DNA of 64,000 nt, taken from Centroscyllium fabricii (taxonomy: Eukaryota). Below, in pieces: positions 1 to 61,265 of this stretch. The number at the start of each line of letters is the position of its first letter. Position 1 is the first letter of the stretch. The stretch is taken from assembly GCA_051313645.2 (NCBI GenBank), contig JBNRSN020000019.1, positions 6,200,001 through 6,264,000 on the forward strand, written 5' to 3'. Position numbers and translations under genes: made by a program. The notes under the pieces were generated by a model. The model made no database searches, was not told the DNA's origin, and worked only from the letters and a program-made list of their open reading frames with translations.

Positions 1-1618
1 CCCCTGGCCTTTTTCAGCCGACAACTCCGGCCCCCAGAGGTTAAATACAGCGCCTTTGATAGGGAGCTACTCGCTCTCCATCTGGCGGTGCGACATTTTC
101 ATTTCCTCTTGGAGGGCCGACACTTTACAGCCTTCAGCCTTCAGCGACCACAAGCCACTCACGTTCGCAATGGCTAAGGTCACTGAACCCTGGTCGGCCA
201 GGCAGCAGCGCCAACTCGCGGCCGTGTCGGAATTTACAACCGACATTCAGCAAATTTCCGGCCGCGACAACGTGGTCGCTGACTGCCTCTCACGCCCCTC
301 CATTAACGCCGCCCAAATGGCGGTCGATTACGCCCAGCTGGCCGCTGACCAGCTGGCCGACCCTGACCTACTTAACGCAGCAACTAGTCTTCCCGGCCTA
401 CACTTGGCCAAAATCGCGCACGGCCCCGCCGCCACCGTCGTCTGCTGCGACGTTTCGTTACCGCAACCCAGGCCCGTCGTGCCCCACGCTTGGAGGCAAC
501 ATATCTTTAGGACCCTCCACGACCTGTCCCACCCCGGCGCCCGCGCGTCCATCAAGCTAATATCGGCCCGTTTCGTATGGCGCGGCCTGCGCAAAGACGT
601 CCCCCCCTGGGCCAGCTCCTGCATAGCCTGCCAGCGCTCCAAAGTGCATAAGCACATCAGGGCACCGCTGGAAAATTTTAAGGTACCGGCCAGGCGTTTT
701 GACCATGTCCATATTGACCTCGTCGGGCCACTACCGCCATCTCGCGGCCACACACACCTATTGACCATGGTCGACCGCAACACTCGCTGGCCAGAAGCAG
801 TCCCCCTCACCGCCACCGGCACCACGGACTTGGCCAGGGCGTTTATCGCCACCTGGGTCGCCCGATTCGGCGTGCTCACAGACATCACCTCCGACAGAGG
901 ACCCCAGTTTACGTCGACTTTATGGGCGGCCATCGCCCGCGACCTCGGGGTGACACTACACAGAACCACTGCATACCACCCACAGGCGAACGGCCTATGC
1001 GAACGGTTCCACCGCTCGATGAAGGCATCACTACGGGCCACTCTGAAAGATGCATCATGGACCGACCGCCTTCCATGGGTCCTCCTCGGGCTGCGCTCGG
1101 CAGTCAAAGAAGACCTTAATGCTTCAGCAGCGGAGCTCGTCTACGGCCAAGCTCTAACGGTGCCGGGCGAGTTCCTGGCTGAAGCCAACGCTCCCTGGTC
1201 AGCCGACCAGTATTTAAAGGACTTTGCAAACCCGGCACGAGCTTTCCAGCCACTACCAGTGGCCCGGCACGGAGAGCCGGCAGCTCGGGTGCCGGAGGAC
1301 ATTAAAAATGCTAAATTTGTGTTCGTCCGGCGCAATGGACACCGATCTCCACTACAGCCACCTTATGATGGCCCTTACAGAGTGCTTCGGGCGGGAGCTA
1401 AAACTTTTGATTTACAATTGGGTAACAGAACTGAAACTGTAACAATAGACCGGCTCAAGCCGGCACATGTGATAGCGGGCGAGACCACGGTCCCCGCACA
1501 ACCGCCTCAACGCGGTCGCCCTCCCGCAACAAAACCCGCCCACACTCCACCGCAGAACCAGAGACTACTAGCAACACGGTCCGGCCGCATCATCCGGCCA
1601 CCCCAACGGCACACATAG
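1..1618 (+). pseudogene. Ty3/Gypsy pol C-terminal part (RNase H end plus integrase), cut by the window edge, one frameshift
   Basis: Frame 1 reads PLAFFSRQLRPPEVKYSAFDRELLAL (RNase H). A 7-bp duplication at 129-142 shifts into ORF 56..1618, which has DHKPL, the HHCC zinc finger (HDLSHPG..CIACQ), the DDE core (HIDLVG, SDRGPQF, NGLCERFHR) and GPY (YDGPY). Confidence 0.95.
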
Positions 1619-1660
1619 ACACTTTCACTATTCCTCCCGGACGGATTCTGGGGGGAGCTG

Positions 1661-1906
1661 TGTGGCGGTACACCCACGGGGACATCGAATCCGCCACGGG
1701 GACTCCACGGAGCAAAGCCCCGCTCATCCGGGTGACGCGACTACGTCATCACGTCGGCCGACGCGATGACGTCACCAACGGCGGGACCGTTTAAATATGC
1801 CTGTCTCGAGTGGTTCTCTCTCTTTCTTGTACTGTAGTTGATAATTAAAGCTGTGTTTTCTCTAAGCTCTGGCTCACGTGTGGTCACTAGGCCTGCCGGC
1901 GCTACA
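1661..1906 (+). mobile_element. 3' LTR of the Gypsy element at the window start
   Basis: Purine tract GGGGGGAG at 1650-1657; termini TGTGGCG...CGCTACA; TATA-like TTTAAATA near 1790; ATTAAA near 1845. Confidence 0.8.
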
Positions 1907-2221: not shown

Positions 2222-5200
2222 TGATACCATCAATTACTCGAGTCTGAGAGCGAGTTAACATAGGCTTTAATAAACTTAGAACAAGCGTAAGGGATCACAG
2301 GTATCGTTAGTACAGTACAGTAGAGAGGAGGTCAGAACCCACGAGTGCTGACCTTTATACCCCCAGGGTCAGAGGCGTGGCCTACCCGAGGTCCTCCAGG
2401 TACAGGTCTCCCAAGTCTGGCTGGGCAAGAGTAGACACGCCCTAAGGCATGTACATACACATAGTTGGTGTTATAGCCAATATCACCACATTCACCCCCT
2501 GTTAAAGAATTTCAGTACCAGGGGGGGCACAAACAATACCTAACATATGTACAGACAGTATTTACAAAGGTTCCGAGATGTTCCAAAAAAATTGTGGCCG
2601 CCTGTTCATGCCAGGTCACATTGTGCAGACCAGGCGGTCTGGCTGGCGTCGCACCCTCGACGACCGTCTGAGCTGCTGGTCCTGCCGTTCGGTATCGGTA
2701 CCTGGGGAAGCCGAAGGAATATACGTTAGCAGCGCATCACCAGGGAATATGGCGGTATGGGTCGGTGGGGGGCTGGGCACGGGCTGCGATGTGGTAGGTG
2801 CCGGCTGGGCCCACGACGAGAGGAAGGGGGGTGGGGGCGGAGTTGTGGTCGCAGGGGCGCCTGCGGGCGCCAGGTCTTTAATAGAGACTGTGTCCTTCCT
2901 GCCATCAGGGAACTCCACATAGGCGTACTGCGGGTTAGCATGGAGGAGGAGTACCCTGTCGACCAGTGGGTCGGTCTTATAGTGCCGTACATGGCGCCGC
3001 AACAGTACTGGGCCCGGGGAGGCTAGCCACGACGGCAGCGACATCCCCGAGACGGACTTCCTGGGGAAGGAAAACATCCGTTCGTGCGGCGTTGCGTTGG
3101 TCGCTGTACAAAGAAGCGACCGTACGGCGTGTAGAGCGTCCGAGAGAACCGCCTGCCAGCGTGAGGCTGGAAGGCCCCTGGACCTGAGTGCCAGGCGGAC
3201 CGCCTTCCAGACAGTGCCATTCTCGCGCTCTACTTGGCCATTGCCCCGGGGGTTGTAGCTCGTTGTCCTGCTCGACGAGATTCCTCTCGCGAGTAGGAAC
3301 TGGCGCAGTTCGTCGCTCATAAAAGCAGACCCCCGGTCAGAGTGTATGAATGAGGGGAAGCCGAATATTGCGAATATCGGGGCGAGGGCGTTGATGACTG
3401 TGGCAGCAGTCATATCAGTGCAGGGTATCGCAAATGGGAAACGGGAGTATTCGTCCACGACTGTGAGGAAGTAGACATTCCTGTCGGTGGACGGGAGTGG
3501 GCCCTTAAAATCGATACTAAGGCGTTCGAAGGGCCGAGAGGACTTAATCAGGTGTGCCTTGTCCGGTCGGAAAAACTGCGGCTTGCATTCCGCACAGACC
3601 GGACAATCCCTGACTATCTCCCTAACCTCCGCAATACTATACGGTAGATTGCGGGCTTTGATAAAATGATAGAAGCGGGTGACCCCCGGGTGGCAGAGGT
3701 TATTATGCAGAGCCTGCAGTCTGCTCGCCTGCACGCTGGCGCAGGTCCCACGGGACAGTGCATCGGACGGCTCGTTGAGTCTACCTGGCCTGTACAAAAT
3801 ATCATAATTAAAGGTGGACAATTCGATCCTCCACCTCAAGATCTTATCGTTCTTAATTTTTCCCCGCTGTGTGTTACTAAACATAAATGCTACCGACCTC
3901 TGATCGGTGAGCAGGGTAAATTTTCTACCGGCCAGGTAGTGTCTCCAGTGGCGCACCGCTTCGATAATGGCTTGGGCCTCTTTTTCCACGGAGGAATGCC
4001 GTGCTTCCGAGCCCGAGAGGGTACGGGAAAAGAAGGCAACGGGTCTGCCTGCTTGGTTCAGGGTCGCCGCCAGGGCGAAGTCGGACGCGTCGCTCTCCAC
4101 TTGGAAAGGCACGTCCTCATCAATGGCGGACATTGCAGCTTTTACTATATCGGCTTTAAGTTGCTTAAAAGCCGTTAGTGCCGCTGCCGACAGGGGAAAA
4201 ACAGTGGCCCGCATCAGAGGCCGGGCTTTGTCCGCAAATTTCGGGACCCACTGCGCGTAATACGCGAACAGCCCCATGCACCGCTTTAGAGCTTTGGGTG
4301 TCTTGGGAAGGGGATACTCAATCAGCGGGCGCATTCGGTCAGGGTCCGGGCCGATTAGCCCGTTTTCCACCACACAGCCCAAAATAGCCAGGCGTCTGGT
4401 GCGGAAAACACATTTTTCTTTGTTGTAGGTCAAATTCAGGGATTTGGCTGTTTTCAAAAATTTAGCGAGGTTCTCGTCGTGGTCCTCGTCCGAGTGGCCG
4501 CAGATAGTGACGTTATCTAGATAGGGAAAAGTGGCCCTGAGCCCGTGTTCGTCTACCATTCTATCCATTTCCCTCTGGAAGACGGACACTCCGTTCGTCA
4601 CTCCGAAGGGAACCCGAAGGAACTGGTAGAGGCGACCATCCGCTTCGAAAGCGGTGTAGGGGCGCTCCTCTCTGAGGATTGGGACCTGGTGATATGCCGC
4701 TTTAAGGTCTATAGTCGAATAGACTTTGTATTGGGCAATTTCATTTACCATGTCCGAGATCCGGGGAAGGGGGTACGCATCGAGGAGTGTAAACCGGTTT
4801 ATGGTCTGACTGTAGTCGACCACCATCCTGTTCTTCTCCCCCGTCTTTACCACTACTACTTGGGCCCTCCAGGGGCTGCGGCTGGCTTCAATCACCCCCT
4901 CTGCCAACAGTCGCTTCACCTCGGTGCCAATAAACGCCCGGTCTGCAGCACTATACCGCCTGCTCTTTGAGGCAATCGGTGCGCAGTCCGGCGTGAGGTT
5001 CGCGAACAGTTTCGGGGGTGAGATCCGTAAAGTGGTGAGCCCACAAAGCGGGCGCTCACGGGGGGTACTCGACTCGACCGTCAGGGGTGGGAGAGGGCCG
5101 CCGTATGCCAAAGTGACACTCTGCAGGTGGCTCTGGAAATCGAGCCCCAATAACATTGGCGCGCACAAGTGGGGTAACACAAACAGTTTAAAATTACAGT

Positions 5201-6734
5201 ATTTTACCCCGCGAACTACAAGTGATACTACGCAACACCCCACGGCCTGCGCCGATTCTGAGTCCGCCGCCAAGGCAATGCGTTTTAAACAGGGGCGGAT
5301 CGACAGGTGAAGACGGTCAACAGTCTCGGGGGAAATAAAACTATCAGTACTACCCGTATCAAATAAACAGTTACAGTTTTGTCCGTTTACCTGGACGTCC
5401 ATCATTGATTTCTGCAGTTCATGGGGTTTTGATTGGTCCAAAGTGATGGACGCCAGCACGGTTGATGAGTCGTCTTCATCCGAATATTCGGGGTCGGAGT
5501 CAAGTCGAAGACTCTCAAAATGGCCGCTGCCTCGTGGTGATGAACTAAAATGGCCGCTCCTCCTAGCTGTGGCCTCAAGATGGCCGCCGCCTCGTGGTGC
5601 TCCCTCGCGGTCATCTACCTCCGTGTAGTAGGAACGTGGTGCCGCTCTCGCTCCGCTGCAGATGGGGGCTGCCTTCTTTTCCTGCCCTGTTGCGCGGCAC
5701 ATCGCGGCATAGTGCCCCTTCTTTCCACACCCCGAGCACGTAGCATCTTTGGCTGGGCAGCGCAGTCTAGAGTGCCTAGCTTTTCCGCAAAAGAAACACT
5801 TTTGGTTGGTTTCAGGCCTGCTTCTTCCTGCCGCTGCCGTTAGCGCTGGGGTAGGAGTTGGGGCTGGGGATGCCCACGTAGGCGCGCTTGGTTGGCCATA
5901 CGTGGTGGATCTCCGATCTGCATTGTCCAGATTTACAATCAGGGAGGCTGCTTCTTTTAACGTTAGCTCATCCCGTTCTAGCAGTCGGGCCCTGATATAT
6001 GGGGAGTATACCCCTCTTACCAGAGCGTCCAGTGCCAGTTCGTTGTAGTGTTCGTCCGCCGTCAGGGGGCCAGGGGCGCAATCTCGGGTCAGCGCACAAA
6101 TTTCTTTCACGAATTTGGCGCCCGGTTCCTCGGCGCTCTGGGCTCTCTGAGTCAACACGTGCCTTGAGTGAACAGCGTTGGCTGCTGGCACAAATTGTTC
6201 TTTCAGTTTCTTCATGGCCTGTTCGTAATCCGACTCCCCTTCGATGAGGTGGTAATGGTCAGCACTGATTCTGCAGTGTAGAATTCGGCTCTTCTGCTGA
6301 TCAGTTGAAGCAGTCTCTTTCACTTCGTCGATATAGCTCCTCAGCTGCTGTTCCCAGTGTTTATACCGGCGTTCGGCATCGGGAGCAGTCGCATCAATTT
6401 CCAAGATCGGGACAGCCAGAATTCGGTCCATTTTGGATTTTAGCGACGATCTAAGTTTATTAAATTGATACCATCAATTACTCGAGTCTGAGAGCGAGTT
6501 AACATAGGCTTTAATAAACTTAGAACAAGCGTAAGGGATCACAGGTATCGTTAGTACAGTACAGTAGAGAGGAGGTCAGAACCCACGAGTGCTGACCTTT
6601 ATACCCCCAGGGTCAGAGGCGTGGCCTACCCGAGGTCCTCCAGGTACAGGTCTCCCAAGTCTGGCTGGGCAAGAGTAGACACGCCCTAAGGCATGTACAT
6701 ACACATAGTTGGTGTTATAGCCAATATCACCACA
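2222..6734 (-). mobile_element. Full-length young Ty3/Gypsy LTR retrotransposon (4513 bp)
   Basis: 269-bp LTRs at 2222-2490 and 6466-6734, identical by eye, TG...CA; 5-bp TSD ACTAT (2217-2221, 6735-6739); PPT AGGGGGTGAA (2500-2491). Confidence 0.98.
2616..6431 (-). CDS. Intact single-ORF Gag-Pol polyprotein (1271 aa): Gag with CCHC knuckles, protease, RT, RNase H, integrase
   Basis: CFFCGKARHSRLRC and CSGCGKKGHYAAMC; LFDTGS; STIDLKAAYHQV, VPFGVTNG, FPYLDN; SDASD, SVEKEA, TDQRS; HNNLCH..CPVC, IDFKG, SDRGS, NGQVEREN. Confidence 0.97.
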   Translation of the reverse strand: MDRILAVPILEIDATAPDAERRYKHWEQQLRSYIDEVKETASTDQQKSRILHCRISADHYHLIEGESDYEQAMKKLKEQFVPAANAVHSRHVLTQRAQSAEEPGAKFVKEICALTRDCAPGPLTADEHYNELALDALVRGVYSPYIRARLLERDELTLKEAASLIVNLDNADRRSTTYGQPSAPTWASPAPTPTPALTAAAGRSRPETNQKCFFCGKARHSRLRCPAKDATCSGCGKKGHYAAMCRATGQEKKAAPICSGARAAPRSYYTEVDDREGAPRGGGHLEATARRSGHFSSSPRGSGHFESLRLDSDPEYSDEDDSSTVLASITLDQSKPHELQKSMMDVQVNGQNCNCLFDTGSTDSFISPETVDRLHLSIRPCLKRIALAADSESAQAVGCCVVSLVVRGVKYCNFKLFVLPHLCAPMLLGLDFQSHLQSVTLAYGGPLPPLTVESSTPRERPLCGLTTLRISPPKLFANLTPDCAPIASKSRRYSAADRAFIGTEVKRLLAEGVIEASRSPWRAQVVVVKTGEKNRMVVDYSQTINRFTLLDAYPLPRISDMVNEIAQYKVYSTIDLKAAYHQVPILREERPYTAFEADGRLYQFLRVPFGVTNGVSVFQREMDRMVDEHGLRATFPYLDNVTICGHSDEDHDENLAKFLKTAKSLNLTYNKEKCVFRTRRLAILGCVVENGLIGPDPDRMRPLIEYPLPKTPKALKRCMGLFAYYAQWVPKFADKARPLMRATVFPLSAAALTAFKQLKADIVKAAMSAIDEDVPFQVESDASDFALAATLNQAGRPVAFFSRTLSGSEARHSSVEKEAQAIIEAVRHWRHYLAGRKFTLLTDQRSVAFMFSNTQRGKIKNDKILRWRIELSTFNYDILYRPGRLNEPSDALSRGTCASVQASRLQALHNNLCHPGVTRFYHFIKARNLPYSIAEVREIVRDCPVCAECKPQFFRPDKAHLIKSSRPFERLSIDFKGPLPSTDRNVYFLTVVDEYSRFPFAIPCTDMTAATVINALAPIFAIFGFPSFIHSDRGSAFMSDELRQFLLARGISSSRTTSYNPRGNGQVERENGTVWKAVRLALRSRGLPASRWQAVLSDALHAVRSLLCTATNATPHERMFSFPRKSVSGMSLPSWLASPGPVLLRRHVRHYKTDPLVDRVLLLHANPQYAYVEFPDGRKDTVSIKDLAPAGAPATTTPPPPPFLSSWAQPAPTTSQPVPSPPPTHTAIFPGDALLTYIPSASPGTDTERQDQQLRRSSRVRRQPDRLVCTM

Positions 6735-7313
6735 ACTATTTTCAGCAAGGGTAAAGGTGGAGAGGCGCAAAAGTCCCCTGAAAATATGGCGTGCTGTAAG
6801 CAATGGCGTATGTCACTTACTCCATAATTTCCTCTTTTTGAACCGTTCAAGGGTTATTACAATGACACAAGTCCCCAGGAAAATCTGGGCCAACAGTTTC
6901 TGGGAGAAGAAAATTGCCATACGACTCAACTTAGCATTGAAAAAATAACAGTGGGTTTCTGTGTCTCATCAATGATGGTGAAGACGAGCAGTAATTATGG
7001 TTGATCATTTCTCCTGACAGATAATTGAGTGGTGCTGAGTTTTATTCATCTGTTAAGCGATGTGCAAGTCTGCTACATCCAACTTATTTCATCTGCTCTG
7101 CTGCTCGTTTCAGCTTTGCTACTGTCCTGCGCTGTGTGGGCCTTTACCCTTCACTTAGGTTTTTCAACTTGAGGTTGACTCTTAATTGTCCCTCTGAGAA
7201 AATATAACCTTGCCTTCACTTGGACCTCAGTAATGTCCTTGCTGAGATCAGGAACTCACGATGGGAGGGGGAGGAATTGGAAGGGAAAATCTTCTTCTTA
7301 GCTTTGTATCCTG

Positions 7314-7616
7314 TGTGGTAAACCATTAGCAGTAATGCTATACCACTGTTGTACTACCGTACTGTTATCTGTAACTACCTTGCTGCTGCCTATGTAAATA
7401 CTGTACTATGACCTGTAAATACCTGTATGCTAATACTTGTAGGAGCTTGCCCCAGCTGACCCCGCCCCTGACTCCACCTCCGGACTTAGGTGCTTACTCA
7501 TCCACCTCTGGTCAGTACACCTCTGAGCTCAGCCGAGACACGCTCCATTCTTTAGTGAATAAAAGCTGTATAGTTAAGGTTAACTCTTCGTCTTTGGCCT
7601 TATTGACGGTACATCA
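7314..7616 (+). mobile_element. Solo LTR, same family as the 54698-59701 element
   Basis: TGTGGTAAACC...GGTACATCA; TSD TCCTG (7309-7313, 7617-7621); clear similarity to the reverse complement of 59445-59701. Confidence 0.93.
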
Positions 7617-49300: not shown

Positions 49301-50901
49301 GAAAAAACACAGGAAATGAAACAGATTAAAAGGCCAGTTTGGGAGCTGGGAAATGGGGATGAAAGAACAAGAGAGAAGTGAAGAGACATTAAGAGGGATG
49401 AAATGTCGACTCTATTTCTCTCTCCATGGATGTTGCCTGGCCTGCTGAGTTTTTCCAGCATGGGTCCTAGCTATGCCTGCCTTTTCGTGGGATATGTGGA
49501 ACACTCTTTGTTCCAGTCCTACTCGGGTCCCCTCCCTCACCTCTTTTTCTGGTACATTGATGACTGTATCAGTGGCGTTTCCTGCTCTCGCCCTGAACTA
49601 GAGAATTTCATTCACTTTGCCTCCAATTTCCACCTTTCTCACCTTCACATGGCCCATCTCCGACTCTTCCCTTCTTTTCCTCGACTTCTCCATCTCCATG
49701 GATAGGTTATTGACCAACATTCACTGCAAGCCCACTCACTCCCACAGCTACCTGGTCTACAATTCCTCCCACGCACCTCCTGTAAGGACTCTATTCCATT
49801 CTTCCAGTTTCTCTGTCTCCGCCGCATCTGCTCCGACGATGCCACCTTCCGCACCAGTGCTTCCGACATGTCTTCCTTTTTCCTCAACCGATGATTCTCC
49901 TCTACTGTGGTTGACACGGCCCTCAACTGTGTCTGTTTTATCTTCCGCACTTCTGCTCTCACCCCTGCCCCTCCCTCCCGGAACCACAATAGGGTTCCCC
50001 TTGTCCTCACTTTTCACCCCACCAGCATCCACATTCAACGGATCATCCTCCGCCATTACCGCCACCTCCAATGTGATTCCATCACCAAACACATCTTCCC
50101 CTCCCCTCCCCTTTCAGCACTCCGTAGGGAGTGCTCCCTCCGAGACATCCTAGTACACTCCTCTATCACCCCCAACACCCCTTCCCCTTCGCCCGGCACC
50201 TTCCTCTGCAAGCACAGGAGATACAACACCTGCCCTTATACCCCCACCCCCCTTCCCACTGTCCAGGGCCCCAAACACTCCTTTCAGGTGAAACAGCGAT
50301 TTACTTGTACTTCTTGCAATCTGGTATCCTGTATTCGCTGCTCACAGTGTGGTCTCCTCTACATTGGGGAGCCCAAACGCAGATTGGGTGACGGCTTGGC
50401 AGAACACCTCCATTCAGTCTGTAAGGGTGACCCCGAGCATCCGGTCACCTGTCATTTTAATTCACCGCCCCATTCCCACTCAGACCGCACTGTCCTCGGG
50501 CTCTTGCATTGTTCCACGGAAACCCAGCGTAAGCTCGAGAAACAGCACCTCATCTTCCAATTAGGCACTTTACAGCCTTCCGGACTCAATATCGAGTTCA
50601 ACAATTTCAGATCATAACCTCGGCCCCCATTATATTTTAACATATTTTTTATCCACACCTTTGTTTTGTGCCCTTCCCCCTTTTTCTCTCCCACAAGGCA
50701 GCTGTCTCTCATTCTGCCAACGCATTTCACACCTAATCTAGCGCCGTCTTTTGTCTCTTTACTCGTCCTATCACCATCTTGTCCCGTTTTGTATACCTCT
50801 TAATGTCTCTTCACTTCTCTTAATTTCTCTTTTGTTCTTTCATCCCCATTTCCCAGCCCCCAAACTGGCCTTTTAATCGGTTTCATTTCCTGTGTTTTTT
50901 C

Positions 50902-53082: not shown

Positions 53083-55607
53083 TAAGTAAAAGAGATTCAT
53101 TTAAACACAGCATATATAAAAGGAGAGAGCAATGTAATCTTTCCAACTGTCCTACATCACACCGCAGCAGAGAGACATTCATAGGAATCAAAGGTGTGAA
53201 TGGTGTTTTAACAGATCAGTCAGGCACCACCCTGAGATCAATGCGGTGCAGTCACAAAGGGTCAAATGTTGCAGTCTGGTGTCTGTGTGAAAACCCACAC
53301 AGAATGATTTAAAAAACAAAGATTTTTCTTGCTGTTAAAACACCATTCACACCTTTGATTCCAATGAATGTCTCTCTGCTGAGGTGTGATGTAGGACAGT
53401 TGGAAACTTTATGTTGTGCTCCACCTCGCCATACAGCTGGGAAGTACTGCTTTGCCGTTGCTGTTCTGTGACCACTCCCAAACACAGTGCACGAGAATGG
53501 TCCCTTGCCCCACAGATTTTCTCTCCCTCGCTATTAAGAAGCCGGTTAGTCTCTGTTGAATTCTTAAATATGTCACATAATAAATTACTTGAGTTCATAC
53601 AATGCTACGCACAATTAATTCATGGTGCCCATTACCTGGACCTCGAGACCATTTCCAACAGAAATAGGTCACTCGAAAGAAGCATTTAATAAAATGGAAC
53701 TTTCCTGCCTCTAAAACCTCTAATCTTTAGGCAGGCTGCTGCCGATTACAGGGACCTACTGGAAACAAAAAGCTAAAATGATGTTTCCCAGCCTCCCTCA
53801 CAAATATCCCACCAAACTATGTGACCAGGTGATAATCACTAGAGAGACTGACAATATTCATTCAAAGATCCTGAATAATTACGTGGATGGGTTCAGGAAG
53901 GACAGATGGATTTTAATTTGGAGATATAAATGTAAAGCTATGAATATTGGAAGATAACATAAAACATACATATGAAGAAGGGATGTCCATTAGCAAAGGT
54001 GGAAAAGCAAAATGATTTAGGTATGATTAGTAATAATTCACTGAAAATATACAGTCAATGTAAAGACTAATCATGTAATGGCATCCCTCTGAAAGGATTC
54101 TGACTGAGTCAAAACAACTTATTCTAACCTCACACAAATTATTGGTGGAACCACATTTGGAAAACGTGCAACCTGTATTTTTTGACATCTCCGTGGCGCA
54201 TTTACTGTAGATTAAGGCCTCTTTTTGAAGTCCTCAATAACTCTGAAATGCAGTCAAATGCAAATTTGTTTTGTAAAACTTTCACATTGTGTACTGTGTA
54301 ATGCAGCAACTAAATTCAGCCTGCCTGTTTTATTTTGCACTATATTCCACCTATACATTATGGTCAGGGTCCAGACAACAGGGTGGAGTTGGGGCCTGAG
54401 TGCTCGATCCAACTCCGGGACTAAGCATGACTCTTCAGTGAGTTGTCTGCAGCAATGACCCACTCTAGATTGTTTGCTCATGGTAAATTGTGTGACGAGC
54501 CCTGTTGTCCCTGACCTTATTCAATATAAAAACAATGACAAAACATTTGGTTTAGTTTTCCTATTATATACTACCTAAAAATTGGATGATAATTCAGAGG
54601 CCAAAGATGTAACAAAATGCAGAATGCATTTAGTGCGAGAAATGTCAATTTTTCTATCAAGATTCTGCATAGAGCAACCAGTCTGACGGTTGATGTGTGA
54701 CGGACCATCAATAAGGCCAAAGACGAAGAGTTAACCTTAACTAAGCGGCTTTTATTCACTAAAGAATGGAGCGTGTCTCGGCTGAGGACCGTGGTGTACT
54801 GACCAGAGGTGGGTGAGCAAGCACCTATATACCTGAGTCTGGAGGAGGAGTCAGGGGCGGGATCAGCTCCTGCATGTATCAGTATACAGGTATTTACAGG
54901 CAGCAGTAAGGTATTTACACGGGCAGCAGTAAGGTATTTACAGACAGCAGTACAACAGTGGTATGTCATTAGTAATAATTCTGCAGAATGAGTCCGGCGG
55001 GGTGAATGCTTGTCCGAGTCCGCTATCAGAATTGTGTAATCAGTCTCTCCGGTGGTTTCGCCTGTCGGAGGGACCATCAAGGCGCCGGTTGCGGTGGTTC
55101 AGGCAGAGGGGCCCGGGGCGTGTTGTCAGCCACGGGTGCTGGCGGCATGGCATCATCCCCCCAGCTGCTGGCTGGCGGTGTCAAGGGCCCCGGTGTGTTG
55201 CGTGTGTGGGTGGGCCAGGGTGTCTTGTGGCGGATGGGTGGCGGTTGGCAGAGCCGGGGCTCGGCGTCCGTGGCACCGGCGGGCGCCAGGTCCCTTATCG
55301 AGACCGTGTCCTCACGCCCGTCCGGGTATGCCACATACGCGTACTGCGGGTTGGCGTGGAGCAGGTGCACCCATTCCACCAGGGGGTCCATCTTGTGGCC
55401 ACGGACATGTCTCCTAAGCAAAACGGGCCCCGGGTTGGACAGCCACAGCGGGAGCGCTGTCCCCAAAGTCAACCTCCTGGAGAACGAAAACAGTTTGTCG
55501 TGAGGCATGGCATTAGTGGTGGTACACAAGAGGGAACAGATGGAGTGTAGCGCATCGGGGAGGACCTCCTGCCAACGGGAGACCGGAAGGCTTCTGGATT
55601 TGAGGGC

Positions 55608-55844
55608 TGATGTATCGTCAATTAATACACAAAGACGAGTAGTTACCTAAACTACAGGCTTTTATTAACTAAGAATGGAGCTGGTCTCCTGATGAGGTCA
55701 AGGTGAAGAATGAGCGGGGGCAGGGCAGCACTCACCTATATACTCCGACCTGAGGGGAGGAGTTAGGGGTGTGGCTGACCTGGCCTGCAATACAGTACAG
55801 GTGAACCAGCAACTATTTACAGTGGTTATTACACGATTACCACA
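55608..55844 (-). mobile_element. Solo LTR of a sister family nested in the integrase region
   Basis: Minus strand TGTGGTAATC...ACATCA; TSD AGGGC (55603-55607, 55845-55849); integrase codons rejoin across it. Confidence 0.93.
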
Positions 55845-58148
55845 AGGGCCAAGGTGACGGCCTTCCAGATCGTCCCGTTCTCTCTCTCTACCTGGCCGTT
55901 CGCCCGGGGTTATAACTGGTCATTCTGCTCAAGGCAATCCCCTTCTGGAGCAGAAACTGATGCAGTTCGTCGCTCATGAATGTTGACCCCCGGTCGCTGT
56001 GGATGCAGCTGGGGAGACTGAAGATCGCGAAGAGCGTGGTGAAGTGTTTGATCACCGTCGCGCTCATCATGTCTGGGCAGGGGAAGGCAAAGGGGAATCG
56101 GGAGAACTCATCAATGACCGTGAGGAAGTGCGAGTTGCGGTCAGTGGAGGGGAGAGGACCTCTGAAGTCCACACTCAGGCGCTCGAAGGGGCGGGTGGCC
56201 TTGATGAGGTGCCCCCTGTCTGGCCTGTAAAATTGGGGTTTGCACTCGGCACAGACAGGGCACTCTTTGGTCATGGCATTAATCTCCGCAATGGAGTAGG
56301 GGAGGTTGCGGGACTTGACGAAGTGAGCGAGCCTGGTGACACCAGAGTGGCAGAGGTCATCGTGGAGGGCCTGCTGTCTGTTGAGCTGGGCACTGGCACA
56401 CGTTCCCCGGGACAGGGCGTCCGGAGGCTCGTTGAGCTTACCGGGCCGGTAAATAATGTGGTACTCGTAGGTCGAGAGTTCGATCCGCCACCTGAGGATC
56501 TTATCATTCTTGATTTTACCCCGTTGTTTGTTGTTAAACATAAACGCCACGGACCGTTGGTCCGTGAGCAGGGTAAATTTCTTACCGGCCATGTAGTGGT
56601 GCCAGTAGCGCACTGCCTCCACAATAGCTTGGGCCTCCTTCTCTACCGAGGAGTGGCGAACTTCGGGCCCCTGTAGGATTCGGGAATAGAAAGTGACAGG
56701 CCTGCCCGCCTGGTTGAGAGTGGCGGCCAGGGCGAAGTCCGATGCGTCGCTCTCGACTTGAAAGGGAATTGACTTATCAATGGCGTGCATGGTTGCCTTG
56801 ATGACGTCTTGTTTAATCCGGGTGAAGGCCGCCTGGGCTTCTACCAGGAGTTGGAAAACGGTAGCTTTGAGGAGAGGCCGGGCACCCATTGAGCGTAATA
56901 GGAGAAAAAACCCAGGCATCTCTTCAAAGCTTTGAGATTGTGGGGTAGGGGCAGCTCCTGCAGGGGGCGCATATGATCAGGATCAGTGCCGAGGACCCCG
57001 TTCTCCACCACGTAGCCGAGGATGGCGAGGTGGGTCGTGCTAAAGGTACATTTGTCCTCATTATACGTGAGGTTTAGACGCCGGGCCGTACGGCAAAATT
57101 TGTCGAAGTTAGCGTCATGGTCCTGCTGGTCATGGCCGCAGATGGTGACGTTGTCTAAGTAGGGGAAGGTGGTCTGCAACTTGTTCTGGTCAATCATTTG
57201 GTCCATGTCCCACTGGAAGACTGACACTCCATTAGCAACACCGAAGGGGATCCGGAGGAAGTGGTAGAGGCGCCCGTTCGCCTCGAAGGCGGTGTACCGG
57301 CGATCCGCAGCCCGAATGGGGAGCTGGTGGTACGCCGACTTAAGGTCGATGGTGGAAAAGACCTTGTACTGGGCAATCTGGTTGACCATGTCTGTGATAC
57401 GGGGAAGGGGGTATGCGTCGAGCCCGGTGTAGCGGTTAATGGTCTGGCTGTAGTCTATGACCATGCGCAGCTTTTCACCAGTCTTAACCACGACGACTTG
57501 GGCCTGCCAAGGGCTGTTACTGGCCTCAATGATCCCTTCCCGTAGCAGTCGCTCAACCTCTGTCCTGATAAATGCCTGGTCCCCTGCACTGTATCGCCGA
57601 CACTTGGTTGCAATGGGTTTGTAGTTGGGGTTGAGGTTGGTGAACAGCGAACAGTGAGGGGGGTCAACTTTTAGCGTGGACAGGCCGCAGGTCGAACGCT
57701 GTGGTAGGCTGGGGTCATCCCGGCTACTGACCATGAGGGGGGACAGAGGCCCACTCTGCAGGTTGCACTGGAAATCCAGTCCCAGTAACACCGGTGCGCA
57801 GAGCTGCGGGAGGATGTACAATTTAAAATTGCGGTACGTTGACCCCTTAACGGTGAGCATGACCGTGCAGTAGCCGGTGATGTCCACAGTGTGGGACTTG
57901 AAGGCCAGGGAGATTTGGTAGCACGTGGGTCTGACCGTCAGTGCGTAGCACCGCACCGTGTTGGGGTGTATAAAATTCTCCATACTCCCGGTATCAACCA
58001 GGCAGTTTGTGACGTGCCCCTCGACCTTGATTTCCATCATGGAATTAGTCAAGGGGTGTGGCCTGGACTAGTCGACAGTGGCTGAGGCTAGTGTTGTGGG
58101 TGTGCTGGGGCCCTCAGATGGCTGGGGTCATCTCCGGGGTGAGTGGCA

Positions 58149-58590
58149 AGATGGCAGCACTGGAGATGGCGGTGCCCGTGATTCGCACGCGGCTGGCCGC
58201 TGCCGACGCGAAGATGGCGTTGCCCGTGATTTGCATGCGGCTGGCCGCAACTGTATTAAAGATGGCGGCACCTGTGATTCACACACGGCTGATCGCGACT
58301 GTATTAAAGATGGCAGCACCCGTGATTCGCACGCGGCTGGCCGTGACTGTATTAAAGATGGCGACACCCGTGATTTGCACGTGGCTGGCCGCAACTGTAT
58401 TAAAGATGGCGGCACCTGTGATTCAGACGCGGCTGATCGCGACTGTATTAAAGATGGCAGCACCCGTGATTCGCACACGGCTGGCCGTGACTGTATTAAA
58501 GATGGCGGCACCCATGATTTGCACGTGGCTGGCCGCAACTGTATTAAAGATGGCGGCGCCCGTGATTCGCACGCGGCTGGCCGCTGCCGG
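58149..58590. repeat. 48-bp in-frame minisatellite (about 8 copies plus partials) between gag and protease
   Basis: Unit AAGATGGCGGCACCCGTGATTCGCACGCGGCTGGCCGCAACTGTATTA; encodes 16-aa repeats such as PAACESRAPPSLIQLR. Confidence 0.95.
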
Positions 58591-60081
58591 GTCACGCTGC
58601 AGCACCGTACCTGTGGCCACGGAGTGGCTTCACTCGATTCGCAGGCCGTGCTGTTGGGTCTGGAGGCCGGGCCAGATTTACAGACTTTCGCGAAGTGGCC
58701 CTTCCTCCCGCACTTAGCGCAGGTTGCGCTCCTCGCGGGGCACAGCTGTCGCTGGTGTTTCGCCTGGCCGCAGAAGTAGCATTTGGGGCCTGCTGGAGTC
58801 TTCGCGGGGTCGCAGCAGCCGCTGCCGTTGTTGGGGCCTGCGCTGGGAGCAGCGTTTGTGATGCCCAGGGGTTAGATAGGCCCGCATGGGGGTTACCCGC
58901 CGAGTTGGAGTCCATGCTCCGGAGGGCCCCGCTGACCGCATTGGACAGCGAGCCGGCGGAGTCGAGGGAGAGTTTGTCCTGCTCCAGCAGCCACTGGCGG
59001 GCCTGGCCGGACTTGAGCCCCGCCACATACGCATCTCGGACCAGGTAATCTGTGTGCTCTTCGGCAGTCACCGCGACGCAGTCGCAGGCCCATACGAGGG
59101 TCTGGAGCGCCCGGAGGAACTCTGCGTTCGAATCACCCGGCGGTTGCCTTCTGGTAGCCAGTGGGTGTCTGGCGTACACCGAGTTGACCGGGCGTAAGTA
59201 ATGACCCTTCAGCTTTCCGACGGCGTCTTTGTACGTTTTGGTGTCTCGGATGAGTGAGTACACCCGGCCGCTGACTCTGGAGACCAGCACTTTGCGTTTA
59301 TCGGCATCACCGACCTTCGCGGCCTCCAGGTAAACTTCGAAGCAGTTGAGTCAGTGCTCAAAGTCATTCGGTGCCTGGGGATCGAGGTCTAGGCGTTCTG
59401 GTTTCAGTACGTTCTCCATTGTCGAAAAATTTAGTGAATAAAATTGATGTACCGTCAATAAGGCGAAAGACGAAGAGTTAACCTTAACTAAGCGGCTTTT
59501 ATTCACTAAAGAATGGAGAGTGTCTCGGCTGAGCTCCGTGGTGTACTGACCAGAGGTGGGTGAGCAAGCACCTATATACCTGAGTCCGGAGGAGGAGTCA
59601 GGGGCGGGGTCAGCTGGGGCAAGCTCCTGCATGTAAGCAGTAAGGTATTTACATACAGCAGTACAACAGCGGTATGTCATTAGTAATAACGGTTTACCAC
59701 AATGTGATAAGTCAGCTTGCACTTATTACGTACAACCTGCTTTCAAAAACACATTGAGACACTTGCTGGGAATTTCCTCGGAGCTGCTTCCACTCCGCCG
59801 CTGTAACTTTTTCACTGCAACTGCAAGAGAATTCCAGGTCATAAAAAAAGAGTTCCAGGAAGAGAAACGAGTAATCCACAATCTTAGGAAAAAGACTGAA
59901 AAGACACGATCCAGGTACATGAAATGCCAACAAAAGTAGATAGTAATAGGTAGCTTAATTTAGAGCGTGCAACCACAGAACTAGCGTATGAACACGCCTC
60001 CAGGAAGACTAGAGATTAAAAACAATTTCATAATGGGGCAGATGTGGAATAGACTCCCAGCTAAGACAATTAATGCTAATT

Positions 60082-61265
60082 AACAACTTGCATTCATATA
60101 GCACCTTTAACATAGTAAAACGTCCCAAGGAGCTTTGTAGGAGCGTTAACAAAATTTGATTCCGAGCCACATATGGAGATATTAGGACAGATGATCAAAA
60201 GCTTGGTCAAGAGGTAGGTTTTAAGGAGCATCTTAAAGGAGGAGAGAGGTGTTTAGGGAAGGAATTCCAGAGTTTAGGGCTGAGGCAGCTGAAAGCACGG
60301 CTACCAATGGTGGAGCAATTAAAATCGGGGATGCGCAAGAGGCCAGAATTGGAGGACCACAGAGATCTCAGAGGGTTGTGGGACTTTTTTTTTTAACCCA
60401 TTGATAGGATGTGGGCGTCGCTGGCTGGCTAGGCCTGCATTTAGAGCCCATCCCTAATTGCCCTAGAGAAGATGGTGGTGAGCTGCCTTCTTGAACCACT
60501 GCAGTCCATATGGTGTAGGTACGCCCACAATGTTGTTAGGAAGGAAGTTCCAGGATTTTGGCCCAACGACAGTGAAGGAGCGGCAATACAGGTCCAAGTC
60601 AGGATGGTGTGTGGCTTGGAGGGGAACTTGTAGGTGGTGCTGTTCCCATGCGTCTGCTGCCCTTGTCCTTCTAAGTGGTAGAGGTCGCGAGTTTGGAAGG
60701 TGCTGTTGAAGGAGCTTTGGCGAGTTGCTGCAGTGCATCTTGTAGATGGTACACACTGCAGCCACAGTGCGCCGGTGGTGGAGCGAGTGAATGTTGAAGG
60801 TGGTGGATGGGGTGCCTATCAAGCGGCCTGCTTTGTCCTGGATGGTGTTGAGCTTCTTGAGTGTTGTTGGAGCTGCACTCATCCAGGCAAGTGGAGAGTA
60901 TTCCATCACACTCCTGACTTGTGCCTTGTCGATGGTGGAAAGGCTTTGGGGAGTCAGGAGGTGAGACACTCGCCGCAGAATTCCCAGCCTCTGGCCTGCT
61001 CTTGTAGCTGGAGGAGATTGCAGAGATAGGGAGGAGCAAGGCCATGGAGAATTTGAAAACAAGGATGAGAATTTTAAAATCGAGTTGCCAGACCGGGAAC
61101 CAAGGTCTACGAGCACAGGTGTGATGGGTGAATGTGATTTAGCGCGCGTTAGGATACGGGCAGCAAAGTTCCAGATGAGCTCACGTTGACGGAGGGTGGA
61201 AGATGGGAGGCCGGCCAGGAGAGCTTCAGAATAGTCAAGTCTAGAGGTAACAAAGGCCTGGGGTT
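60082..61265 (-). mobile_element. L2-like 3' end interrupted by another LINE 3' end (about 60385-61005)
   Basis: Inner piece encodes QRLGILRRVSHLL..KAQVRSVMEYSPLAW..LNTIQDKA; the outer piece has the AACAACTTGCATT tail, also seen at about 35750. Confidence 0.75.

Follow-up and report, generated by a model that had tools for sequence, protein, structure and literature searches.

The reverse transcriptase (RT) of an intact LTR retrotransposon in the Centroscyllium fabricii genome has the active-site motif YLDN, and comparison of its protein sequence with those of its relatives indicates that YLDN is a fixed trait of a large, animal-wide Ty3/Gypsy clade present in sharks, rays, corals and others. 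The active-site variant is real and clade-wide and is apparently functional, and for it the YVDN motif of BEL/Pao elements is the precedent. In the window, by which we mean the whole 64,000-nt stretch of DNA analysed here, the motif is encoded twice on the minus strand, as TAT CTA GAT AAC at 4512-4523 in element 1 and as TAC TTA GAC AAC at 57150-57161 in element 2. Both copies lie within the peptide FPYLDNVTICG, the synonymous codons of the two motifs differ, and a six-frame scan for [YF][LVIMA]D[DN][ILVM] found no other match in the window. A preliminary description of this DNA had reported YLDN in both elements and had read it as a lineage trait rather than decay. The first statement is confirmed, and the second is supported by young intact copies that carry YLDN.

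Element 1 occupies positions 2222-6734 on the minus strand (4,513 bp) and is flanked by a 5-bp target-site duplication at 6735-6739 and 2217-2221. The 5' LTR (6466-6734) and the 3' LTR (2222-2490) are each 269 bp long, run from TG to CA and are identical; a TATA-like box lies at 6596-6606 of the 5' LTR and a polypurine tract (2491-2503) adjoins the 3' LTR. A single ORF (2616-6431, first ATG at 6431) encodes Gag, protease, RT, RNase H and integrase, and residue numbers are given here in its stop-to-stop frame of 1,285 aa from position 6473. The ORF contains two CCHC zinc knuckles (5697-5798), a DTGS protease active site (5349-5360), an RT core (Pfam RVT_1, aa 543-701, 4371-4847) with the motif A aspartate Asp589 at 4707-4709, an RNase H domain (3756-4178) in which the four acidic residues D795, E832, D857 and D904 are present, and an integrase with an HHCC motif and a D,D(35)E core (3216-3707). 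In this gag-pol ORF no Pfam match to an env or a chromodomain was found at an E value of 0.01. The nearest named proteins are those of a catshark and rays, at 75-81%. Near-identical DNA of the element (window positions 4350-4900) was also observed in runs X1, X2 and X6, which represent three coded organisms and three studies; close relatives, diet or transfer are candidate sources of this near-identity.

The affiliation with Ty3/Gypsy (Metaviridae type) follows from the Pfam order protease-RT-RNase H-integrase, the TG...CA LTRs, the polypurine tract and the 5-bp duplication, which was seen both in the window and around 18 of 19 further copies. The closest solved structure is Ty3 RT, both by sequence (E 2.7e-50) and by fold. 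An AlphaFold model of the RT (97 sequences, pLDDT 91.2) matched Ty3 RT best, with a Z score of 31.7 and an rmsd of 3.5 over 369 residues, and XMRV RT ranked second (Z 30.6). In the HMMER alignment with Ty3 RT (4ol8_A), YLDN lies residue for residue opposite YLDD, so the asparagine stands in for the second aspartate of the motif, Ty3 D214. Asp589, Asp653 (4515-4517) and Asn654 (4512-4514) are the counterparts of Ty3 D151, D213 and D214, and with YLDN in place of a YxDD that has both aspartates, the canonical triad of three aspartates is not present. YLDN is not an assembly error, which is excluded by 1,185 exact genome copies and three covering runs. The exact 35-nt stretch around the motif had 1,185 matches in the genome, none with a base other than A at the first position of the Asn codon. 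Three of four public runs over 4350-4900, one of which may be the source of this DNA, covered the region, with no other letter listed at 4512-4523.

Judged by its markers, the likeliest named clade for element 1 is Cigr-1. Two CCHC knuckles, a GANG-type flap in the protease, an integrase located after RNase H, loss of GPY/F, and the lack of a chromodomain and an env were all found, and this is the marker set described for Cigr-1 of Ciona intestinalis and for elements of molluscs and an annelid (PMC2774666, PMC6238403, PMC8556966). The likeness is one of markers, and the same set is also common to part of the Osvaldo clade and is not diagnostic. The available parts of the three Cigr-1 descriptions (PMC2774666, PMC6238403, PMC8556966) are silent on YxDN and on the primer site.

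Element 2 (54698-59701, minus strand) is an older copy from another family of the same clade. Its coding region is spread over several frames, its LTRs are about 88% alike, it has a 5-bp target-site duplication, and it shares 73% identity with element 1 in the RT segment. A 48-nt in-frame tandem repeat occupies 58116-58643 in its gag region. A probable solo LTR of its family lies in the opposite orientation at about 7400-7616 on the plus strand, at 91-93% to both element 2 LTRs over 130 nt. Elsewhere in the window, positions 1-1905 (plus strand) hold the 3' part of a different Gypsy element, which we take to be CsRN1-like, with an integrase frame at 2-1618 followed by a polypurine tract and an LTR-like stretch. 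Element fragments at 49602-50617 and 60463-61263, presumably Penelope-type and LINE-type, lie amid many SINE-like repeats.

The distribution of the asparagine was followed through the homologs of element 1. Among the 120 best, 94 carried YxDN, 25 YxDD and one YLNK, and the named clade members came from rays, a sea anemone, corals, a nematode and a damselfly. In the tree set, which included a 50%-cluster search, RT and RNase H were sufficiently covered in 247 of 270 proteins. A single clade at 40% identity or above held 187 of these, and the 60 more distant proteins all had Asp. Within the clade the third site was Asn in 117 proteins, Asp in 69 and Lys in one, and Asp589 and Asp653 were kept in 186 and 185 of the 187, respectively. 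Asn was found in none of 120 proteins from another Gypsy lineage (115 had Asp), and the viral contigs contained no clade member, with Asp in 73 of 73 sequences at 22-33% identity. YIDN in a distant tRNA-type Gypsy element (L285:3304-5157) was considered as a further origin and rejected, as none of 120 relatives had Asn; this element has a TGG-type primer site and its YIDN is a sporadic change.

The early-branching rows of the clade were mostly Asp, and parsimony counted 19 changes between Asp and Asn on a 193-row FastTree tree from which the column of the site itself had been removed. A hand-picked 58-row IQ-TREE tree, with SH-aLRT support only and a long-branch warning near the root, gave 13 changes; its starred Asn groups contained nested Asp rows, and Asn was gained separately once. 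Clusters at 90% were uniform in state, with 60 Asn members in seven and 16 Asp members in two others of the ten clusters in all. Side observations from this sampling concern two sets of proteins. The members of the 90% cluster P0080 have YLNK (four) or YLDK (two) in long frames and possibly represent a non-autonomous or decaying family. Clade members in L276-L283 lie inside records labelled as bacterial MAGs; these are likely host contamination, which would account for the bacterial names on P0012 and P0044.

The preliminary description had proposed that compensating changes accompany the asparagine. We found no such residue: none of 395 RT and RNase H columns co-switched with Asp/Asn over 10 independent pairs in what is a low-power test, the best column scoring a mean of 4.6 with the switch versus 1.2 opposite to it and the other extreme 0.6 versus 4.9. 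Columns that were naively associated with Asn (best N806, p 3.7e-20) vanished on the independent pairs and thus reflect kinship. Any compensation would therefore be clade-wide and older than the Asn.

In the 7.2-Gb genome, the clade motif had 212,968 matches with Asn and 295 with Asp, the latter figure counting only elements that match the motif flanks used. Two mutation controls, each also a single A-to-G change, gave 456 matches for Ser and 819 for a change of the first Asp to Gly. As the Asp matches are fewer than either control, the Asp copies represent background mutations. Thirty Asp copies were fetched, of which 27 could be aligned without shifts. They were spread over several families, several contained stops, and the distance from each sampled copy to an Asn copy was similar to that to another Asp copy. 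The preliminary description had allowed for two contrary outcomes, namely that young copies mostly carry YLDD or that YLDN elements are mobilised in trans. Young genomic copies instead carry YLDN, and the motif counts gave no sign of an Asp-type helper.

The age of the copies and the selection acting on them were estimated from fetched sequences. The RT protein was 100% identical in 150 of 150 scored genome matches, these being the best 150 of 556,276 candidates. Twenty of these copies, a young-biased sample, were fetched and showed 98.8-99.8% identity to element 1; among the 19 that could be analysed (L043 was dropped), 11 had identical LTRs and 18 a perfect 5-bp duplication. For comparisons between families, 32 Asn copies (30 fetched and the two in the window) were assembled and the 23 that were stop-free and ungapped were used. 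The median dN/dS over 135 between-family pairs was 0.066 at a median dS of 2.0, an approximate value because dS is near saturation. The Asn codon was AAC in 20 and AAT in 10 of the 30 fetched Asn copies. With the Asn-type RT kept at a dN/dS of about 0.07, function in cis is the likely reading of these data.

A second property of the clade is its primer-binding site. In every family an AT-rich site one base past the CA of the LTR is the complement of an arm of the element's own LTR. The arm holds an A(A/T)TAAA-like poly(A) hexamer, and the A-run at its end is followed by GCC or ACC. In element 1 the site (6450-6464, minus strand), which does not start with TGG, is the exact complement of a 15-nt arm at 6510-6524, which includes ATTAAA, a hexamer like a poly(A) signal, and has a second copy at 2266-2280. 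The site of element 2 (59430-59443, minus strand) differs in sequence from that of element 1, and its 14 nt are complementary to its own LTR arm at 59497-59510. The duplex started one base after the LTR CA in 27 of 27 junction rows, and a TGG start was seen in 0 of 27. Fifteen of the rows are from this genome, in which 24 motif matches were obtained and seven without a paired LTR and two with a non-LTR repeat were set aside. The other 12 are metagenome rows, eight Asn and four Asp, of which the Asp rows were chosen by an inverted-repeat scan of 17 loci and are biased. No tRNA genes lie within the window. The sequence TGGTATCA at the LTR end of element 1, which we took to resemble a tRNA-Met site, was rejected as a primer site: it is internal to both LTRs, and other families lack it.

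Among the rows were 16 distinct sites, in each of which 11-14 of the 14 positions pair. Where the 16 distinct elements vary, 120 of 128 pairs were Watson-Crick; 10,000 shuffles, which did not correct for kinship, averaged 75 and reached 97 at most. A single junction had a folding z-score of only -1.92, so the case for the duplex rests on this covariation. When loci were anchored at the gag start, at least 12 of 14 positions paired in 15 of 15 Asn loci and in 5 of 6 Asp loci, the latter from one family; a second Asp family (L278, 46% identity) showed 15 contiguous pairs. A published screen for self-priming elements looked for at least 10 bases, located 0-5 nt after the 5' LTR, that are complementary to the LTR (PMC6317226). 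The corresponding stretches measure 15 nt in element 1 and 14 nt in element 2, and the complementarity covaries across the 16 distinct elements.

We lean towards self-priming of minus-strand synthesis in Asp-type and Asn-type elements alike. The LTR arm with its poly(A) signal would pair with the primer-binding site, and the RNA would be cut just after the A-run of the arm to yield the 3' end of the primer. In the duplex, the 5' poly(A) signal would also be masked. The TATA-like box lies 138 nt and the arm 59-45 nt before the LTR end, which places the arm about 50 nt inside the predicted transcript; this predicted start suggests that the arm is internal to the transcript and is not the mRNA 5' end. 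Self-priming chromoviruses of the Tf1/sushi group, and Tcn1 and TAR of plants, are likewise described as having a primer-binding site complementary to their own 5' LTR and not to a tRNA (PMC4600332, PMC6317226). In Tf1 and Tj1, however, the primer is the mRNA 5' end (PMC4600332), whereas the arm of this clade is formed by the poly(A)-signal region, at a predicted position about 50 nt inside. The Tf1/sushi chromoviruses also have a chromodomain at the integrase C-terminus, and none was found in element 1 (Pfam, E 0.01).

It is unlikely, although still worth serious consideration, that another primer is used and that the duplex just hides the poly(A) signal of the 5' LTR against premature polyadenylation. 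This would suit an arm in which the A(A/T)TAAA-like hexamer is always present and whose predicted place in the transcript is about 50 nt from the 5' end rather than at it, and Ty3 RT is reported to prime de novo in Mn2+ (PMC10415136). Against this, the duplex starts at the exact place of a primer's 3' end in all 27 junction rows, none of which has TGG, and the hiding of a poly(A) signal and a role in priming are compatible.

The consequences of an asparagine at the third position are known from yeast elements. In Ty3, D151N and D213N abolish polymerase activity and D214N keeps activity with lower processivity, and each of the three mutations is lethal to transposition (PMC5371799). The Ty1 mutant D211N has a kpol lowered 223-fold and does not transpose, and RNase H suppressors restore 5-10% of transposition (PMC2148107); the preliminary description had given this mutant correctly as one that retains polymerase activity and does not transpose. 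Because the yeast Asn mutants are dead for transposition, the tolerance of Asn in this clade needs a cause. We consider it probable that these elements have a two-aspartate polymerase with a third site that tolerates Asp or Asn, and that the Asn-type families copy themselves with their own RT. By the biochemistry of Ty3 and Ty1, Asp589 and Asp653 would hold the catalytic metals and do the chemistry. The third residue would help with one side-chain oxygen, which Asn retains, and a single oxygen would fit a site that accepts only Asp or Asn. In the weakest of these inferences, a clade-wide background older than the Asn may lift the penalty in processivity or rate that is fatal to the Ty1 and Ty3 mutants. 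Candidates for this background are, in the RT, Gln538 (177 of 185 proteins), Gly628-Val629 (Gly628 in 161), Thr656 (151) and Gly659 (181), and further on Arg731 (174) and Gln858 (170); these are clade-wide markers only, and many will be unrelated. Some RNA-virus polymerases have a GDN motif, which parallels YxDN.

Other accounts of the asparagine were weighed against this two-aspartate polymerase. An enzyme without compensation, slower or less processive but tolerable or useful in a 4.5-kb element, at a site that drifts between Asp and Asn, seems improbable to us. It would sit well with the lack of a co-switching residue, with the fixation of both states in separate 90% clusters and with the activity, at reduced processivity, of Ty3 D214N (PMC5371799), and we infer that a CpG across GAC-GAC codons would favour the change from Asp to Asn. 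Asn is nevertheless unfixed in other Gypsy lineages (0/60 and 0/120), so that something specific to the clade permits it, and 212,968 Asn motifs speak against a weak enzyme. We are more doubtful still that the asparagine co-evolved with and serves the unusual self-priming, a link that the preliminary description had suggested. Asn is frequent only inside the clade with the self-complementary site, and self-priming could be a permissive precondition. However, the same duplex occurs in two Asp-type families (5 of 6 loci of one, and L278), so priming does not explain the Asn, and YVDN also occurs in BEL/Pao elements (PMC554778, PMC9094657).

Least credible, to about the same degree, are the two accounts in which an Asp-type enzyme does the work. 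Were the Asn-type elements non-autonomous for polymerase and copied in trans by an Asp-type RT, the source could be Gypsy elements of other lineages, whose Asp-type RTs are probably in the genome (as the integrase at 2-1618 indicates), and the laboratory Asn mutants of Ty1 and Ty3 are indeed dead. Yet Asp motifs of the same clade are rarer than the mutation controls, and the Asn-type RT is under strong purifying selection with the other two aspartates kept. Asp might instead be restored either in the transcript, where A-to-I editing would convert the Asn codon by a single A-to-G change, or in the protein, by deamidation; both would agree with a site that allows only Asp or Asn. Edited RNA would, however, yield Asp-type DNA, and the Asp copies do not reach background; deamidation, moreover, is slow for an Asn that precedes Val or Ile. 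The composite picture, in which a fully efficient two-aspartate RT with a free Asp/Asn switch is joined to hairpin self-priming by the poly(A) arm that also silences the 5' poly(A) signal and has built up to ~1 Gb, is a tentative one that we regard as plausible but short of probable.

The preliminary description overstated the uniqueness of YxDN, as YVDN is in print for nematode BEL/Pao elements: Cer7-Cer12 of C. elegans (PMC554778, citing Bowen and McDonald) and the hookworm belpaoviruses, including Atlas virus (PMC9094657). In these Belpaoviridae, too, Asp is naturally replaced by Asn at this position, in elements that are intact and have identical LTRs, and the 2005 paper stated that the activity of the natural YVDN remained to be determined (PMC554778). 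BEL/Pao is a different superfamily, with three zinc knuckles (PMC554778) and, in Atlas, an env, whereas element 1 has two knuckles; YxDN therefore had an independent origin in the two. Asp/Asn switching, copy-number evidence and an enzyme assay are absent from the available parts of these sources (PMC554778, PMC9094657). Ty3 RT (4OL8) has the same fold and triad positions, and Ty3 D214N and Ty1 D211N are likewise polymerase-active in vitro. The yeast Asn mutants do not transpose, whereas the Asn form here is natural, with about 213,000 motif copies, and Ty3 is tRNA-primed. In the literature searched, which had few subscription journals and neither GyDB nor Repbase, no report of a natural YxDN in Ty3/Gypsy was found.

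Ever since mutants of Ty1 and Ty3 proved active in vitro and dead in vivo, what the second YxDD aspartate does has been a question. The clade described here offers evidence from a genome that massive transposition can run on an Asn enzyme, and its natural Asp and Asn sister enzymes allow the two states to be compared unaltered. If the prediction holds, the arm with the poly(A) signal represents a new self-priming layout. A very large class of repeats would be misclassified by annotation rules under which YxDN elements count as dead, since 212,968 copies would amount, in a rough estimate that takes all of them as full length, to up to ~1 Gb or 13% of the assembly.
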